Below, piece by piece: positions 488 to 30,474 of a stretch of DNA of 64,000 nucleotides. Position numbers and translations under genes: made by a program. Positions within the stretch are counted from its first letter, which is position 1. The number at the start of each line of letters is the position of its first letter. The notes beneath the pieces were generated by a model. The model ran no database searches and was not told the DNA's origin. It saw only the letters and a program-made list of their open reading frames with translations. The stretch is from a virus, in the IMG/VR virus record IMGVR_UViG_3300028888_000123; one strand, given 5' to 3'.

Positions 488-559
488 GGGAGAGTAGCTC
501 ACGGCTAGAGTGCTAGCTAGCGAAGGCTAGAGATGTAGGTTCGACTCCTACCTCTCCCA
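488..559 (+). tRNA. tRNA with a non-canonical 8-nt anticodon loop (TAGCGAAG); isotype undetermined.
   Basis: Acceptor GGGAGAG/CTCTCCC, D-stem GCTC/GAGT, T-arm GTAGG-TTCGACT-CCTAC. The anticodon stem CTAGC/GCTAG encloses 8 nt. Confidence 0.55.
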
Positions 560-638
560 ACAATGGTGACGGGACTAGCCAGAAGAAGTCCTATATAACA
601 AGGGGTACTTTGTAATAGCTGCTATCCCTTGTCTATAT

Positions 639-711
639 GCCGAGCGTGACAGAGTAGTAATGATTAACGGGTCGCACCCGTTGTTCGTAGGTGCAAATCC
701 TACCCTCGGCT
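639..711 (+). tRNA. tRNA-like element: acceptor, anticodon arm (loop GTCGCAC, anticodon CGC if canonical) and T-arm with atypical T-loop TGCAAAT; no recognisable D-arm. Possible pseudo-tRNA or structural variant.
   Basis: 6/7-bp acceptor GCCGAGC/CCTCGGC, AAACGG-loop-CCGTT arm, GTAGG-TGCAAAT-CCTAC. TGC replaces TTC in the T-loop. Confidence 0.35.
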
Positions 712-718
712 CCTTTAT

Positions 719-812
719 GGAGAGATGTCAGAGTGGATGAATGTGGCGGCTTGCTAAGCCGTTAACCGGATGAGAAGCCGGTTCGTAGGTTCGAATCCTA
801 CTCTCTCCGCCA
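719..812 (+). tRNA. tRNA-Ser (anticodon GCU), type II with long variable arm, CCA encoded.
   Basis: GGAGAGA...TCTCTCC acceptor, anticodon loop TTGCTAA, variable arm AACCGGATGAGAAGCCGGTT, T-arm GTAGG-TTCGAAT-CCTAC, then G and CCA. Confidence 0.8.
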
Positions 813-813
813 T

Positions 814-890
814 AGGAGATTAGCTCAGATGGTTAGAGCACTTGTCTGATATGCAAGGTGTCACTGGTTCGATTCCAGTATCTCCTACCA
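814..890 (+). tRNA. tRNA-Ile (anticodon GAU), CCA encoded.
   Basis: AGGAGAT/ATCTCCT acceptor, D-stem GCTC/GAGC, anticodon stem CTTGT/GCAAG with loop CTGATAT, T-arm ACTGG-TTCGATT-CCAGT, then A and CCA. Confidence 0.8.
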
Positions 891-893
891 AAT

Positions 894-967
894 GTCCCCA
901 TAGCTCAATTGGATAGAGCGATAGCCTTCTAAGCTATAGGTTCTAGGTTCGATTCCTAGTGGGGATA
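894..967 (+). tRNA. tRNA-Arg (anticodon UCU).
   Basis: GTCCCCA/TGGGGAT acceptor, D-stem GCTC/GAGC, anticodon stem ATAGC/GCTAT with loop CTTCTAA, T-arm CTAGG-TTCGATT-CCTAG. Confidence 0.8.
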
Positions 968-993
968 GGTTTTAGTTGAAAAATATAGAAAAG

Positions 994-3177
994 ATGAGAA
1001 CATTATTGTTATTTAGATGAGCACCTTGATGTGGAAAGTCTACCTTCATAAAGGAGAATTGACTAGAACCATACACTTTATGTGCAGATACTTTTAGAAT
1101 GCTGTATTCTTCTCCTACATTATATGTAAATGGAGAGGTACATATTCCACAGAATGTGAATGCAGTAGCTTGGGATAATCTATTCTCTACCCTAGAATAT
1201 AGAATGCAGAATGGAGAGTTCACAGTTATCGATGCTACAAACTCTAAAACTGTGGAGATGAATAAATATAAGAAACTAGCTGATGAATATAGATATAGAC
1301 TTTATATTGTTGATATGACAGACATCCCTATCGATGAAGTAAAGAGAAGAAATAAACTTAGACCAGAATGGAAATGGGTACCAGAAGAAGCTATAGATAA
1401 TATGTATGCTAGATTCACAACGCAAAAAGTTCCTAGCTGAATTAAGGTTATTAAACCAGAAGAGGTGGTTGACTTATTAAGATGGAGAGCTGTAGAAATT
1501 CCTGATACATATAAAGAGGTAGTACACATAGGAGATATTCATTGATGTTATGAAACATTAATGTCTGCTCTACCTAATGGTATTGAAGAAGATAAGTTCT
1601 ACATATTCCTATGAGATTACTACGAAAGAGGGCCAGAGAATGTAAAATGCCTAGACTTTATGGAAAGCATAATTGATTTACCTAATGTTGTATGTTTGGA
1701 GTGAAATCACGAAACTCATTTATGGACTTATGGTATAGGAAAAATCCCTAGAAGTAAACACTTTATGGGGTATACAGTGAATGAATTAATCGAATGAGGA
1801 TGGGATGCTAAAAGAATGAGAATCTTTATGAAGAAACTTTTGCAGTGCTACTACTATACCTTCAAAGGTAAAACTGTTCTATGTACTCACTGAGGAATAA
1901 GTAATTCTAATTTCGATGAACTATTCCCATTAGGATTAACTTGTATCGCTACAATGGATTTAATTCATTGAGTGGGTAGCTATAATGATACAGCTGAATG
2001 TGATACTAACTTTGCTAAAGGAAACATAATTCAGATACACTGACACAGGAATATAGAAGATAAACAAATAGAATGAATTGCTAACCTAGAATGATGAGTT
2101 GAATGGTGAAAGGAATTGAGAGTTGCTGTGTTGGGTGATGAATTAGAAGTAGTTAAGTATCCATACAAAGATAGAATACCTTCTAAGGAAGAATTCTTCT
2201 GAATAAAACAGGATGTAACCGTTAAACAATTCATTGAAAGCTTGAGAAAGAATAGATATATCAACGAAAAAAATGTGCAGTGAAACATAAGTAGCTTTAA
2301 CTTTACTAGATGAGCATTTAGTAGAAGTCACTGGGATAGAGAAACAGTTAAAGCAAGGGGGCTATTTATAAACACTAACACATATAAAATAGTTGCTAGA
2401 GCCTACAATAAGTTCTTTAATATAGACGAACAAAAGAGTACAATGTTATTTAGTATAGGACAAAATGCTCACTTCCCTATCGTTGGGTACAAGAAATATA
2501 ACGGATATCTATGAATAATAGGATACGATGAAGAAAGCGATGAGTTAGTATTCACAAGTAAATCTGAAGTGGGTTGACCTCACGCTCAACGACTTAAAGA
2601 AATAGTTATAGAGAAAGGTATCAACTTAGAAAAAGTAAAAGACTATTTAAAGGAGAACCTTTGCTCGTTAGTCTTTGAGGTTATAGACCCTGTAAATGAT
2701 GCACATATTATTAAGTATACTGAAAGAGATGTTATATTGTTAGACTGTGTAAAGAATACTATCAACTTTGAGAAACTAGACTACGATAGTTTATTAAAGC
2801 TATGAGAACTACTTTGATTCACAGTAAAAGAAAAGTTAGTAGAGTTAAAAGATATGGTGGAGTTGAGAGAATGTATTGACGAATTACTAAATCCTAATTC
2901 AGAGTACAATACTTGAACTCCTATTGAATGAATGGTGTTTGTTGACAAAGATGACTTTATGTTTAAACAGAAGTGAGAGTATTATCAGCAATGGAAGAAA
3001 CTTAGAGCTTTGATTTGAGTAGTAGCAAGATGACAAAACTTTGTTCATACTTGAATGTTAACAAACCCAGAGATGAATGAGTTCTATTGATGGTTAAAGG
3101 AACAGACTTTAACTTGAGAAGAAAACATTATAGAGCTTAGAGATAAGTTCTATGCTAACAAAGCTATGATTAGCTAA
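994..3177 (+). CDS. pnkp: Trifunctional RNA repair enzyme with kinase, phosphatase and ligase domains. The N-terminal domain is a P-loop polynucleotide kinase, the central domain a lambda-phosphatase-type metallophosphoesterase, and the C-terminal domain an Rnl-type RNA ligase. About 727 aa with TGA read as Gly.
   Basis: P-loop FRGAPGCGKST spans two TGA codons (1018-1050). GDIHGCY (lambda PPase GDLHGCY) and LEGNHE span further TGA codons. Ligase motifs KxNG (VGYKKYNGY), FEVID, EGMVFVD and FKQKG are present. Only TGA interrupts the frame, up to TAA at 3175. Confidence 0.75.
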
Positions 3178-3306
3178 CATAGGGAGTCGTCCACCTCGGC
3201 ACGGACGGATAATGTGGGGTATCACACTGTAAATATTAGCTTTAGTATTAGTAATGCGAAGTACAAACATTATGAGTAGTAAGGTTAATATGATATATCT
3301 CCCTTC

Positions 3307-3377
3307 GGCAGGGTAGCTCAGGGGCAGAGCAATGCCGTTTAGGGCATATGTCGTGGGTTCGAGTCCCACCCTTGTCG
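3307..3377 (+). tRNA. tRNA with a 6-nt anticodon loop (GTTTAG) between a perfect 5-bp stem ATGCC/GGCAT. The central TTT/TTA suggests a Lys(UUU) derivative or UUA; isotype undetermined.
   Basis: Acceptor GGCAGGG/CCTTGTC (two GU pairs), TA, D-arm GCTC-AGGGGCA-GAGC, T-arm GTGGG-TTCGAGT-CCCAC. Confidence 0.5.
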
Positions 3378-3384
3378 AGGGGAG

Positions 3385-3472
3385 TTTGAAAAATGTGTAA
3401 AATGGGTATCAAAATACCTTGAAAAATGTGTAAAATGTATACAAATTTATATTGAAAAATGTGAAACTAATG
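3385..3472 (+). repeat. Three tandem copies (period about 33 bp) of TTGAAAAATGTGTAAAATG; promoter-like (TTGAAA ... TAAAAT).
   Basis: Copies at 3385-3404, 3418-3437 and 3451-3472 (degenerate), directly upstream of the first early small gene. Confidence 0.6.
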
Positions 3473-3865
3473 GACAAGCTTATTAGATTTATAAATGAAT
3501 ATGGGCACACAAGTAGTTGTTGACCATTCGAAACTTATAGAATAGAGCCAGCGACAGACTGGATTTCTTCATATTTAGTATTGAGCCGAGATGATAATTG
3601 AGAGTGAGATTGGAAAGATTGGCATTTGCCAGTTCCAAGATTAATTAGTAAAGAATATGGTTTCATAAAACGACTTGTTGATAATGATAAGATAGACAAG
3701 AAAAAAATAGATACAAGGCTGGTTAAAAGCGTGGAAAGTCATTACGATGTAGACTGATGGTGGGTTGAAAATTCATACGAGGATTATTCAGATATAGATA
3801 CTTTGCTAATGCTACTATCAATATCAGATACACCTATTGATTTATTATGTAACCTGTTAAAATAA
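3470..3865 (+). CDS. Hypothetical small protein, family A; paralog of 6755..7102.
   Basis: Read through 4 TGA codons. Shares GFIKRLVDNDKIDK and LLMLLSISDTPIDLL motifs with the 6755 gene. Confidence 0.45.
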
Positions 3866-3866
3866 A

Positions 3867-4076
3867 ATGAGAGTGGCAACGTTAATTAAAAAGTTAGAAA
3901 ATTTTCCAAAAGAGTGGGAAGTATTCTATAAAGATGGAGAAGACTTAATAGAGATACTCTGATGTAATCAGGGTATTGAATATTATGAAGAGTGAGACGA
4001 AAGAAGAAAGCCAGTAATAGACGAAGAATGAAATAAGAGTTATCCATATTGAAGAAGGGTGGTTACTTTAAGTTAG
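3867..4076 (+). CDS. Hypothetical small protein (about 69 aa).
   Basis: ATG 1 nt after the previous stop; frame open with TGA as Gly. Confidence 0.35.
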
Positions 4077-6644: not shown

Positions 6645-6755
6645 ATGGACGACGATACAATTTGATGTATATGATGTATAGGTTGCTTATGGCTTCTCTG
6701 AATTATATCAGGAAATACAGCAATGATATTAGTTTTACTTGCTATTATATTATAA
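6645..6755 (+). CDS. Tiny Cys/Gly-rich membrane peptide (36 aa).
   Basis: Triple CIG repeat read through TGA; the stop overlaps the next start (TAATG). Confidence 0.3.
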
Positions 6756-7102
6756 TGGAAAAACTTATAGAGTTATTGAATGAGTATGAAAAGAAAGCAG
6801 TAGTACACTGGTATGAGTGGTATTGACAAGATGTTTTAATGTGCAGATATATAAAAGATGGTTTTGAATTTTATACTGATGAAGCAACTACGATAGCTAT
6901 TTCTAAATATTACTGATTTATTAAATGGTTAGTAGAGAATGATAAGATAGACAAAGATAAATTATACAAATCTGAATATAAGCCATACTTTTGGAATAGA
7001 ACAACAAATGCTTTTAGCTGATTTTGGGCAGAGAATATCTTACTAATGCTACTTGCTATATCAGATACACCTATTGAAGATTTAATTAGTTATTTAAGAT
7101 AA
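6755..7102 (+). CDS. Hypothetical protein, family A; paralog of 3470..3865.
   Basis: Shared motifs GFIKWLVENDKIDKDK and LLMLLAISDTPIEDL. Confidence 0.45.
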
Positions 7103-9071: not shown

Positions 9072-9467
9072 ATGGAAAAAGTTATTAACTTATTTAATAA
9101 ATTTATGGAGGAAGAAAAAAATCTTCCTGGTGAACGACAACTAATAACAGACATCTTTGAAGAAGATTTATGATGAGATGATTGAACTGTTTTGTGGGCC
9201 TTTATGCAAGAGCCAGATGTATGATATGCTCAATATAGTTATCCAGAGTGGGGAGGTAAGAAGTTCTGATTTATAGAATGGCTAGTTAAAAGGAGAGAAG
9301 AATTCTTGAAAGATTATGAAGCTATCACGAATGTAGATGAGTGAAAGAAAATATTAATTTGAGATGTGATGATTACAAATATTAATTGAAGTTTAACGGA
9401 TAGTATCGTCGGAGCATTAGCTACAGTAGATAATCCAATAGACTTTTTAGATAACATATTGTTATAA
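9072..9467 (+). CDS. Hypothetical acidic protein (131 aa).
   Basis: Frame open with 9 TGA codons to TAA 9465-9467. Confidence 0.4.
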
Positions 9468-28384: not shown

Positions 28385-28600
28385 TTATTGGGTAATTTTT
28401 TGTAAAGTTTCTTCATATGAAATATGTTTCCCATTCCAAATAATTATTGGTAGCATAGTTTCTCCTTCAATATCTTCTGGGTTAGCTTCATTAATGTTTA
28501 CTTCCTCAAATGTAAGTCCATTATTTTCAGCATAACTCTTTAATAAAGGAGCTATCATATGGCAACGGGAACAGAAGTCCCCCGAAATAAGTCTAATCAT
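28385..28600 (-). CDS. Glutaredoxin/NrdH-like thioredoxin-fold protein (71 aa).
   Basis: ORF track entry; CSRC (CxxC) motif near the N-terminus; size typical of the family. Confidence 0.5.
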   Translation of the reverse strand: MIRLISGDFCSRCHMIAPLLKSYAENNGLTFEEVNINEANPEDIEGETMLPIIIWNGKHISYEETLQKITQ

Positions 28601-29088
28601 TTTTAGTTCAAAATTTTCTGATAAAATCTGAATTGTCTATTTTTGACTGTTCAAAGACAGTTCTCCCGTAAAATTCGCTCTTCTTACCTTCGTTATATCA
28701 ACTCACTGGTCTAATGTATCACCAATATGTTACCGATAAAGCATTTAACTTTATCTTCTATATGTTACCATATAGTTCGGACTATATCTTCAAATAACTT
28801 TCGTTAAGTGTTGGGCACTCGTGTTGCTTTCATTACTGGTCTAGTAGTATAGCATTAGTCTCTGCACGTTCTCCCTATCCCTAAGGAGCTTCGCTCAGTA
28901 TTGTCCTTATAGGAGTTCCACTGAATTCACCCAATGTTTAAAGAGAGACATAATACTTAGTCTATCACTCTCGTATACACTTCACAAGGCACTCTTTTAT
29001 AAATCTTTCAATCACTTCACATAACTTCAACTGTCTCAATGGTTTTTGGCATAATGGTAATTATAGTAAAATATAAAAAACATATAAT
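28601..29088. ncRNA. 480-nt non-coding island: candidate structured RNA or replication origin with iteron-like repeats.
   Basis: Stops in all six frames even with TGA as Gly. Internal repeats TATGTTACC(G/A)ATA x2 and CTGGTCTA(A/G)T x2. Everything around it is densely coding. Confidence 0.35.
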
Positions 29089-29253: not shown

Positions 29254-29286
29254 ATTGGATTAAAGGAAAGGATAAAAGGCTGATAT

Positions 29287-30432
29287 TATATATAAGCTAA
29301 GCGCGCCCCGAAAGTCCAATACGTACTCGTAGCAGAATAATACACAAACAAAAAGAAAGCACCAGCACTCGAAGCACTTCTCTCATCACCACCAGCAAGC
29401 GCCACAGCAGAAGCATCCACATAACCGAGGTCACAGTAGTAAGTTGTATAATTATCTCAAGAGTAAGCTGATGGGAAGAACATACCTTTATCGTTTCAAA
29501 CTATTGATGTGATATTTCAATCTATTGAAGTAGCACTTCATAAACTCTCCCATCAATAACTTGTATTTCATAGTTCTTTTAATTTTGAAGGGTTGTTTGT
29601 CATATTCACATAATTTCAATATATTCAATCTACCCATTCGGAGATGTTTCACCACCAGTCTTCAAGTCAGAACAATCTAACTCTTCAAGTAGATGAAGTA
29701 TTAGTAGCTCAAGTTGCTAAGTTTCAGCTTATTCAAGTTACTGTAGTTCATAATACTTGCACAGCACTTCAATTAGTGTAACCTTGTCCAATCACAGACT
29801 GACTATTAGGATTACCATATTTCATCATATATAACGCATTTACATAGTTTCTTATAGGTAATGTAATTAGTGAATAATGTGATGAACTTCAGTATCAAGT
29901 TATAACATCTGTATTTCTAAAGTCTGTAATAGAACGGTCTACTGTCGGATTGGCATTAGTTGCCCAACTTCTTAATTTACTAGAATTAGATGTTCATTTA
30001 AAGGCTCATACATACATTTGATTTTGGATACTTCCATCTCTATTAAATGCATAATATGTATATCCAGGTTTATTAGGGTCTGCTGTGATGCTTAATGTAA
30101 CTTGGCTTCCACTCTTAGACATTTTAATTCATCTTCTAGGGAATTTTATCATCACATTATTAGCCCCAGTAAGAGTTCATAGTTGAGATAGGTTTAATAC
30201 TCAAGGAGTAGTCTGTTTTACCTCTGCTGTTTCGTTTCAATTTGCATCTAATAACACTGCTGAATATCAAAAAAATTCATCAAAAGCTGTATCTCAAGCA
30301 GTTAGTCAAGCTGCATCATCTGAATAAGTCCATCCACTAGACATATTGCTTTTCTCTGTTCGTGAGATAGTGAATGTTCTATAAGTAGGTCGCACTTTAT
30401 TCTCTCATAGATAAACTGCTTTGATTTCTTTT
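29287..30432 (-). CDS. Tail-fibre/receptor-binding-like protein (about 381 aa) with a GC-rich 3' end.
   Basis: Ser/Thr/Gly/Asn-rich; the C-terminus YYCDLGYVDASAVALAGG...YYSATSTYWTFGARLAYI is encoded by an unusually GC-rich stretch (29290-29450). Confidence 0.4.
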
Positions 30433-30474
30433 TGTACTAACATTTATTTAATAAATTATATAAATCTAAATTAA

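Follow-up and report, generated by a model that had tools for sequence, protein, structure and literature searches.

tRNA-shaped genes with irregular anticodon regions around an RNA repair gene of a code-25 phage: probable non-decoding tRNA look-alikes

A 64,000-nt stretch of viral DNA (IMG/VR record IMGVR_UViG_3300028888_000123; the whole analyzed stretch is hereafter called the window) carries a tRNA array around a gene for an RNA repair enzyme with a ligase domain, and three tRNA-shaped elements of this array, here named A, B and C, depart from ordinary tRNAs. Comparison of their sequences with those of related phages indicates that A, B and C are probably tRNA-shaped RNAs that do not decode, mimics put to use in processing, as scaffolds or as decoys. 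The specific reading that we favor, at a probability of about one in two, is that they would be non-decoding look-alikes kept for what a tRNA body provides, namely recognition by RNase P and 3'-end enzymes, and stability. The anticodon region of these elements changes in length and architecture while the rest of the fold is kept, which argues that it is not used as an anticodon. tRNA-like RNAs within a viral tRNA cluster are an already known kind of element, of which those described here are a new variant. The three elements are the following:

488 to 559, + strand: look-alike A, with an 8-nt anticodon loop, UAGCGAAG (ARAGORN call '???' at 487-561; Rfam tRNA model, 53.7 bits)
639 to 711, + strand: look-alike C (found with a custom scan for an acceptor stem plus a T arm)
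3307 to 3377, + strand: look-alike B, with a 6-nt anticodon loop, GUUUAG (ARAGORN call '???' at 3306-3378; Rfam tRNA model, 50.9 bits)

tRNA genes were called with ARAGORN and with the Rfam tRNA model RF00005 (gathering score 29). ARAGORN made five calls in the window, all on the + strand, of which three are regular and two lack an identity. Both programs recovered the abnormal loop lengths proposed by the original prediction, 8 nt at 488-559 and 6 nt at 3307-3377. In A, the acceptor stem (GGGAGAG/CTCTCCC), D arm and T arm are normal, and the anticodon stem CTAGC/GCTAG closes the loop U-A-G-C-G-A-A-G, in which position 33 is A instead of U; ARAGORN reports a four-base 'anticodon' (gcga) and the sole irregularity against the Rfam model is an insertion in the anticodon loop. 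This loop could close further through a U.G pair, an A.A mismatch and a GCGA tetraloop. In B, the acceptor, D, anticodon (ATGCC/GGCAT) and T stems are all perfect and the discriminator base is G; ARAGORN reports a two-base 'anticodon' (tt), the sole Rfam irregularity is a deletion in the anticodon loop, and no register within the 6 nt accommodates U33, three anticodon bases and a purine. The original prediction had set beforehand that refolding into 7-nt loops would speak against both anomalies. All hairpins with a stem of 4 bp or more that can form between the two flanking arms, D and T, were therefore enumerated, and none has a 7-nt loop, the possible loops being of 8, 6 or 4 nt in A and of 6 or 8 nt in B. 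The 6-nt loop of B recurs in independent JGI, ENA and Logan assemblies and hence is not an assembly error. A and B thus show every part of the cloverleaf (7-bp acceptor stem, D arm, anticodon arm and T arm), and C has only the acceptor stem and T arm. Of the traits of a canonical elongator tRNA, A and B lack the 7-nt loop and the combination of U33 with a purine at position 37, and B in addition lacks tRNA-like conservation.

Related loci, about 20 in number, were collected from Logan, ENA and JGI (L-numbers below) through a protein search for ligases 68-94% identical to that of the window and through contigs carrying a 21-nt motif at the ligase stop codon. All of them have tRNA arrays on both sides of the ligase gene. 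Orthologues of B occupy the same place in at least 11 distinct sequences, and their anticodon stem is always a perfect 5 bp, closing loops of different length:

Window: GUUUAG, 6 nt
L009 and L033: AUUUAG, 6 nt
L025, L028, L029, L031 and L036: GUUUGG, 6 nt
L030: GCUUAG, 6 nt
L027: GUUAG, 5 nt
L014: GUUAGGU, 7 nt
L010: GGCUAUA, 7 nt, without U33 (G33)
L032: UUAUGGUA, 8 nt

The 5-nt and 6-nt loops come with ligase proteins that are 91-94% identical, the loops GGCUAUA and UUAUGGUA belong to more distant orthologues, and in the more distant relative L024 the slot of B holds a normal tRNA-Pro. When the 11 distinct B sequences are aligned, 95% of the cells in the cloverleaf and in an 8-bp extension of its acceptor helix are paired, versus 50-58% with slid partners; in 13 pairs both partners have changed, and the real pairing was never attained in 500 shuffles. 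Among five close phages, six of the seven substitutions in B stems keep pairing (P ~0.02, using the empirical transition fraction), and the stems remain fully paired, with wholly different anticodon stems, across lineages whose ligases are only 68% identical. The adjacent tRNA-Trp is identical in six assemblies, whereas B varies, so that B evolves unlike a working tRNA. Judged by these alignments, B evolves like a structural RNA, with its shape kept, its sequence free and its loop unconstrained.

In family A, the departure from a tRNA is one of architecture. Orthologues at the same array position were found in L009 (5584-5674), L029 (2498-2588) and L011 (5729-5817). They keep the acceptor, D and T arms, their stretch between the D and T arms spans about 41 nt and not 22, and an H-type pseudoknot replaces the anticodon arm. 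This long form exists in two independent versions, one in L009 and L029 and the other in L011, which differ in their acceptor stems and share one architecture. Between them, both partners have changed in all four stem 1 pairs and in two stem 2 pairs of the pseudoknot, as well as in three acceptor pairs and one T-stem pair outside it. The acceptor stem of the L011 copy is, by eye, the same as that of tRNA-Asn. Searches of IMG/VR with exact and degenerate DNA patterns for family A returned nothing, or ordinary tRNAs only. A tRNA-splicing reading, in which the insert of the long form would be an intron cut out by a nuclease together with the Trl1-like ligase, was rejected, because excision leaves no normal anticodon arm and cannot mend the 6-nt loop of B.

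Element C is the least regular of the three. It received no call from ARAGORN, nor from Rfam at E<=1 under permissive settings. Its acceptor stem has six of seven pairs (C7xC66), its T arm reads GTAGG-TGCAAAT-CCTAC, and its D stem has three of four pairs with a loop lacking GG, which does not make a convincing D arm. The central hairpin around UCGCA can be read as 5 bp closing a 7-nt loop, GUCGCAC, or alternatively as up to eight continuous pairs (10 positions, one mismatch) with a loop of 3-5 nt; the 7-nt loop results only if two further possible pairs stay open, and the rule of U33 and a purine at position 37 then fits (G-U-CGC-A-C). Its 3' tail is TCCT, where neighboring tRNAs and the tRNA-Gly of relatives have TCCA. 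The flanks of C, CCTTGTCTATAT ... TCCnTTATGGAGAGATG, enclose a tRNA-Gly(UCC) in L009 and L029, so that C fills the tRNA-Gly slot of these relatives. The original description of this element as having the T-loop TGCAAAT and no foldable D arm is borne out in its essentials, but the T-loop is not peculiar to C: TGC T-loops (TGCGATT or TGCAATT) are shared by confidently identified His and Cys tRNAs from related phages, and are hence a habit of the clade and not an anomaly. Global alignment of A, B and C to the canonical tRNAs of the same phages did not reveal a parent tRNA for any of them.

Abnormal elements are not limited to these families. L029 carries at 2797-2866 a derivative of tRNA-Asn with a compensated D stem and a new 5-bp anticodon stem closing a 5-nt loop, and L025 carries at 3253-3326 a paralogue of tRNA(UCA) with the loop CAUCUGU (A33). 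Several longer elements consisting of an acceptor stem and a T arm are also present in the arrays of relatives. Further irregular tRNA-shaped genes were noted in L032 (2060-2150), L014 (5034-5108) and L016 (9968-10045 and 10236-10306), the irregular calls including a 91-nt 'Ala-AGC', loops of 10-12 nt and a UUA 'stop' anticodon. By comparison, no abnormal loop length was seen in the approximately 90 ARAGORN tRNAs of 60 IMG/VR loci with ligases 42-47% identical to that of the window, and the trait is therefore clade-specific and not a general companion of the enzyme. Five IMG/VR relatives retrieved in a first pass had no tRNAs near the ligase gene.

Three features adjoin B:

3163 to 3298, + strand: element U, a predicted structured non-coding RNA of about 135 nt, conserved in 16 loci
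3299 to 3306, + strand: leader strand CTCCCTTC, which pairs with the trailer and lengthens the acceptor helix of B by 8 bp
3377 to 3384, + strand: trailer strand GAGGGGAG, partner of 3299-3306, overlapping the discriminator base of B

The ligase stop codon lies within the hairpin that begins element U, CTATG-ATTAGCTAA-CATAG. The second hairpin of U covaries (GTCGTCC/GGACGG, CCTACC/GGTAGG, CGTTG/CAACG), and folds inspected by eye indicate a further helix in which pairing is kept (TATCA/TGATA, ATGAG/CTCAT, GTGGG/CCCAC) and another one, TAATG/CATTA versus CTAGA/TCTAG, around a conserved AAGUACAA loop. The motifs GGATRATGT, GACTGTAA and AAGTACAA are invariant. No Rfam family matches U, which is a candidate new RNA motif and, on present comparisons, an unclassified structured RNA. 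In all contexts but one, a tRNA or a tRNA look-alike lies directly 3' of U. B directly follows it in the window and in L009, L010, L014, L025, L027-L033 and L036, and B, or in L024 the normal tRNA-Pro, adjoins U even where U lies behind another gene (L014, L032, L024). U is not attached to the ligase gene in L014, L016 and L032. Since U can be detached from the ligase gene and still be accompanied by a tRNA-shaped gene, the two travel as a unit. The helix formed by leader and trailer covaries (alignment columns 1-8 with 82-89) and is also predicted by RNAalifold. Its purine-rich trailer is kept where the next feature is tRNA-Trp instead of an open reading frame (ORF), and is therefore not simply a ribosome-binding site. 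The CTCC strand of the leader has another possible partner in GGGAG, at the beginning of U. B therefore has the structural traits of a tRNA-like processing module: a tRNA-like fold without a usable anticodon, placed beside a conserved structured RNA.

Several side observations concern the same interval. Three direct repeats of TTGAAAAATGTG (3386-3397, 3419-3430 and 3452-3463) lie at a spacing of 33 nt between B and the next ORF; they have a promoter-like look and occur also in L010, L029 and L033. A 24-codon code-25 frame (3394-3468) spans these repeats and overlaps ORF 3470-3865 through TAATG. In L035, an IS605-type TnpB (OrfB_IS605, Cas12f-like; 2932-3972) sits directly 3' of the ligase gene, in the place of U and B. 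The possibility that B is an attachment site was also considered and rejected, as no integrase was found among the scanned ORFs and B is a complete tRNA-shaped gene and not a 3' fragment.

Under the favored reading, selection would keep those parts of the elements that are seen by the tRNA-processing machinery, that is, the acceptor stem and T arm, in most cases together with the D arm, and would place no constraint on the anticodon region, which could then vary between 5 and 8 nt in B and exchange a hairpin for a pseudoknot in A. RNase P and the enzymes that trim tRNA 3' ends would cut at the borders of the look-alikes and so set the ends of neighboring RNAs. B may in this manner define and protect the 3' end of the transcript of the ligase gene and U, and the tRNA body of A may offer a scaffold, stable and properly processed, on which another functional module is displayed. 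We infer that the elements are co-transcribed, cleaved by RNase P and neither aminoacylated nor used in decoding, and that the displayed modules would have binding partners. Several observations weigh against this interpretation. A base-paired leader and trailer is unlike the usual substrates of RNase P, so that some other mechanism may lie behind the helix. Not all odd members lie at the borders of arrays, the L011 copy of A and the tRNA-Asn derivative of L029 being internal. The independent long forms of A are only two, the 8-nt loop that A has in the window is kept in no orthologue, and C has no clear orthologue among the relatives. Lastly, the body of B is barely more conserved than synonymous positions, with 10 of 65 variable columns versus 36 of 167 four-fold sites of the ligase gene across five phages, and so weak a sequence constraint makes a recent loss of function difficult to dismiss, most of all for C.

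Among the alternatives, the look-alikes might be decoys or inhibitors, which would bind an anticodon nuclease through their tRNA body and, having a loop that the enzyme is unable to cut, soak it up. We regard this as unlikely, and likewise its extension, in which normal phage tRNAs and the ligase would sustain translation and the variation of loops would be the trace of an arms race. The look-alikes do flank a heal-and-seal enzyme, as in the response of T4 to PrrC through Pnkp and Rnl1 (PMC10264068). A second, distant clade also has a tRNA array directly after its ligase gene, with a spacer in which no obvious likeness to U is seen by eye. The loop is also the most variable part of B among the five close phages, with two of six positions variable versus the proportion given above for the remainder of B, and with a change of length in L027. 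Diversifying selection on the loop could nevertheless not be demonstrated, since two of six is not clearly above the neutral rate represented by the four-fold sites. Furthermore, a decoy should mimic the loop of the target, yet the loops of B lack U33 and differ in length. Scans of GTDB genomes (one per species) with the junction motif and with the body of the phage tRNA(UCA) had no match and identified neither a nuclease nor a host with its tRNAs, and a literature search turned up no precedent for decoys of this type. A broader proposal is that the clade displays small, fast-changing RNA modules, from loops of 5-8 nt to a pseudoknot, on a tRNA body at the site of the anticodon arm. These modules would bind and block host tRNA-targeting immune nucleases or other tRNA-binding factors in concert with the repair ligase, as an anti-defence system made of RNA and engaged in an arms race; this appears rather improbable on the sequences at hand.

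The look-alikes might also be decaying pseudogenes, that is, former tRNA genes killed by mutations in their loops and still undeleted from an array of fast turnover, and this explanation, too, is doubtful. The arrays are indeed mosaic, with cassette-like swaps exactly at tRNA borders, as for C and tRNA-Gly; the body of B varies almost like four-fold sites; and C, with its acceptor mismatch, weak D arm, CCT in place of CCA and lack of an ARAGORN or Rfam call, is what a decaying gene could look like. Decay does not readily account, however, for the perfect pairing of B stems across lineages with ligases that are 68% identical, for the pairing kept by most of the recent stem changes, or for the covariation of the family A pseudoknot, and in B at least three lineages acquired an aberrant loop with the stems left intact.

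A further alternative, the one favored by the original prediction, is that these are working tRNAs with altered anticodon loops, which would escape an anticodon nuclease and still decode. The underlying concept stands, as phage tRNA clusters opposing tRNA-targeting defence are an established idea (PMC10264068); known nuclease-evading phage tRNAs carry base substitutions in normal 7-nt loops (van den Berg et al. 2023, PMC10264068), mycobacteriophage tRNAs with such anticodon-loop substitutions counter a tRNA-cleaving defence (PMC10264068) and T5 tRNAs act against retron effectors (PMC11555353). The array of the window resembles these anti-defence clusters in lying beside an RNA end-healing and sealing enzyme and in having its changes concentrated in the anticodon loop, and the distant B orthologue of L014 has a regular-looking loop, GUUAGGU, with U33 and G37. 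The known cases, however, retain the usual 7-nt loop and anticodon and are regarded as decoding tRNAs, whereas in this clade loops range from 5 to 8 nt and frequently lack U33, and in one family the anticodon arm as a whole gives way to a pseudoknot. Hence A and B of the window, which has A33 in A and never gives a 7-nt loop in B, were rejected as nuclease-evading tRNAs of the type described in 2023. In addition, B evolves far faster than the adjacent tRNA-Trp, and it does not encode CCA, unlike the Ser and Ile genes. Nuclease-proof decoding is therefore poorly supported, and we consider it very improbable. The more specific suggestion that the TTT-centered loop of B represents the tRNA-Lys targeted by PrrC fares no better: TTT is not conserved, the body has no Lys-like similarity and the discriminator is G. 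The discriminator of bacterial tRNA-Lys is A73.

Least plausible is a recoding role, in which A would decode quadruplet codons through its 8-nt loop (+1 frameshift suppression) and B, with its loop read as 6 or 8 nt, would act at sites resembling UAA. Classical frameshift suppressors are typified by an anticodon loop of eight nucleotides, and A (488-559), like sufD/sufJ-type suppressors and yeast mitochondrial tRNA-Thr1, has a loop of this size in a normal cloverleaf; ARAGORN moreover reads the L027 version of B, and a separate gene of L016, as UUA 'stop' tRNAs. These suppressors, however, keep U33 and a defined extended anticodon, whereas position 33 of A is A and its L009, L029 and L011 orthologues carry the pseudoknot in place of an 8-nt loop, for which a +1 suppressor identity was rejected; since the loop length of B is not conserved either and the code-25 reading frames are long and tile the window (the longest has 2939 aa), with no sign of split genes among these ORFs, although no scan was aimed at frameshift or read-through sites, recoding is extremely unlikely.

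The closest parallels to the favored reading, non-decoding look-alikes kept for their tRNA body, lie in other systems. The tRNA-like parts of MALAT1 (mascRNA) and of the murine gammaherpesvirus 68 TMER RNAs are not aminoacylated and are processed by tRNA enzymes, which set the ends of RNAs. They are likewise tRNA-shaped, with an irregular anticodon region, and lie directly beside a structured RNA (in the present case a candidate one, predicted from sequence), but they are eukaryotic or herpesviral and have no counterpart to the 8-bp leader/trailer helix of B. The stable RNAs 'species 1 and 2' of T4 (rnaC, rnaD) are small RNAs located in the T4 tRNA cluster and co-processed with the phage tRNAs. 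They share with the look-alikes their co-encoding with phage tRNAs and differ in not being described as cloverleaves with an altered loop length. A search of GenBank phages found no sequence relationship between rnaC or rnaD and the window, the only matches being generic tRNA matches over the canonical genes (780-960). YrlA (Rfam RF02553) is also a non-coding RNA with a tRNA-like domain in an RNA repair neighborhood, but its RNA ends leave the arm that replaces the anticodon stem, whereas those of the look-alikes leave the acceptor stem. Its model was rejected: its only matches, of 24 and 22 bits, fall short of the gathering score (69) and lie over the canonical Ser, Ile and Arg genes, with nothing at A, B or C; every other Rfam family was likewise rejected on score. 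A scan of 29 window ORFs against Pfam or PHROGs, which covered a minority of the small ORFs, found no Ro/TROVE protein.

The remaining features of the array are as follows:

466 to 479, + strand: leader hairpin GCTCC-TTCG-GGAGC, then TTGATGT, directly 5' of the first tRNA-shaped gene (flagged as terminator-like)
719 to 812, + strand: tRNA-Ser(GCU), canonical, class II, CCA encoded (ARAGORN; Rfam, 52.3 bits)
814 to 890, + strand: tRNA-Ile(GAU), canonical, CCA encoded (ARAGORN; Rfam, 66.9 bits)
893 to 968, + strand: tRNA-Arg(UCU), canonical (ARAGORN; Rfam, 72.3 bits)
994 to 3177, + strand: fusion of a kinase, a metallophosphatase and an Rnl1-type RNA ligase, 727 aa, of predicted heal-and-seal type (Pfam)

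A single strand thus holds everything from the leader hairpin at 466 to the end of B at 3377. The leader hairpin with TGATGT also opens the arrays of L009, L010 and L029, whichever tRNA comes first in them. The Ser, Ile and Arg tRNAs had been taken as canonical, which both programs confirmed. The 3' CCA is encoded by the Ser (809-812) and Ile (887-890) genes and absent from the Arg gene (967-970) and from A (559-562), C (711-714) and B (3377-3380). Codons AGY make up 42% of Ser codons and AGA makes up 64% of Arg codons in the window. Upstream of the array, the non-coding region 1-149, truncated by the start of the window, is 81% identical to L009 5340-5487 and contains a hairpin resembling a T arm, CTGGG-TTCGATT-CCCAG, and after it a long hairpin, GGAGGG...CCCTCC; neither ARAGORN nor Rfam matches it, and it may be another tRNA-like or larger RNA. 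Two relatives, L025 (about 3590-3800, - strand) and L037 (1-90), have upstream of their tRNA array a conserved region that looks structured and likewise holds a hairpin resembling a T arm, ATAGG-TGGAAAT-CCTAT / TGTAGG-TAAAATC-CTACA.

The adjacent RNA repair gene, already named as such by the original prediction, was confirmed through its domains. ORF 994-3177 matches the Pfam families AAA_33 (E 1.7e-14), Metallophos (3.9e-18) and RNA_lig_T4_1 (3.9e-36), which provide kinase, phosphatase and ligase, and its sequence matches in the PDB are to fungal tRNA ligase and to a lambda-type phosphatase. The kinase region matches short PDB chains (171 residues) deposited as 'Metallophosphoesterase', which we take to be the kinase domain of C. 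thermocellum Pnkp. By its predicted domains, the protein combines a polynucleotide kinase, a 2',3'-phosphatase and an ATP-dependent RNA ligase, the set that defines a heal-and-seal RNA repair enzyme of the Pnkp plus Rnl1, or Trl1, type.

This ORF, which contains 30 in-frame TGA codons, also bears on the genetic code of the phage. The G+C content of the window is 33%, and ORFs of at least 100 aa sum to 25,081 aa under translation tables 4 or 25 versus 4,235 aa under table 11, so that the window is readable only with TGA as a sense codon. Across 103 aligned homologues, Gly occupies 17 of the 30 TGA positions in at least 95 sequences and is the commonest residue at 20 of the 30, and Trp is never among the commonest; it follows from the presence of Gly and not Trp at these positions that the code is code 25. 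Read in this way, TGA accounts for 900 of the 1414 Gly codons of the window (64%), and only TAA (53) and TAG (11) are used as stops. On this sequence evidence the phage uses code 25, in which TGA specifies Gly. Code 25 is the code of Gracilibacteria and Absconditabacteria (PMC10746230). Some relatives encode in their arrays a tRNA(UCA) whose acceptor stem is Gly-like, in keeping with this code; it is present in L010 and L025 and was not found in the window itself. A portal-like protein and a RusA-like resolvase mark the window as that of a phage. Elsewhere in the window, a group I catalytic intron was identified at 28758-29010 on the - strand (Rfam, 81.4 bits against a gathering score of 50), where a gap separates ORF 28385-28600 from ORF 29286-30443, and three small ORFs (3470-3865, 6665-7102 and 9072-9467) are paralogous, sharing the C-terminal motif YGFIK.LV.NDKIDK ... 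ISDTPI..L...L and matching no Pfam family.

The tRNA genes of phages are usually read as codon supplements or as replacements for tRNAs destroyed by defence systems. In this clade of phages, which would infect little-known bacteria of candidate phyla in which a stop codon has been reassigned, a considerable fraction of the tRNA-shaped genes probably cannot decode and nonetheless keeps its shape. If these genes serve as modules for processing or stability, the logic of 'tRNA punctuation' and of tRNA scaffolds known from mitochondria, MALAT1 and herpesviruses would extend to bacteriophages; if they are decoys, they would constitute a new class of RNA anti-defence factor. In either case, the labels 'tRNA-Undet' or 'pseudo' given to such genes by annotation pipelines would hide a functional class of RNA.

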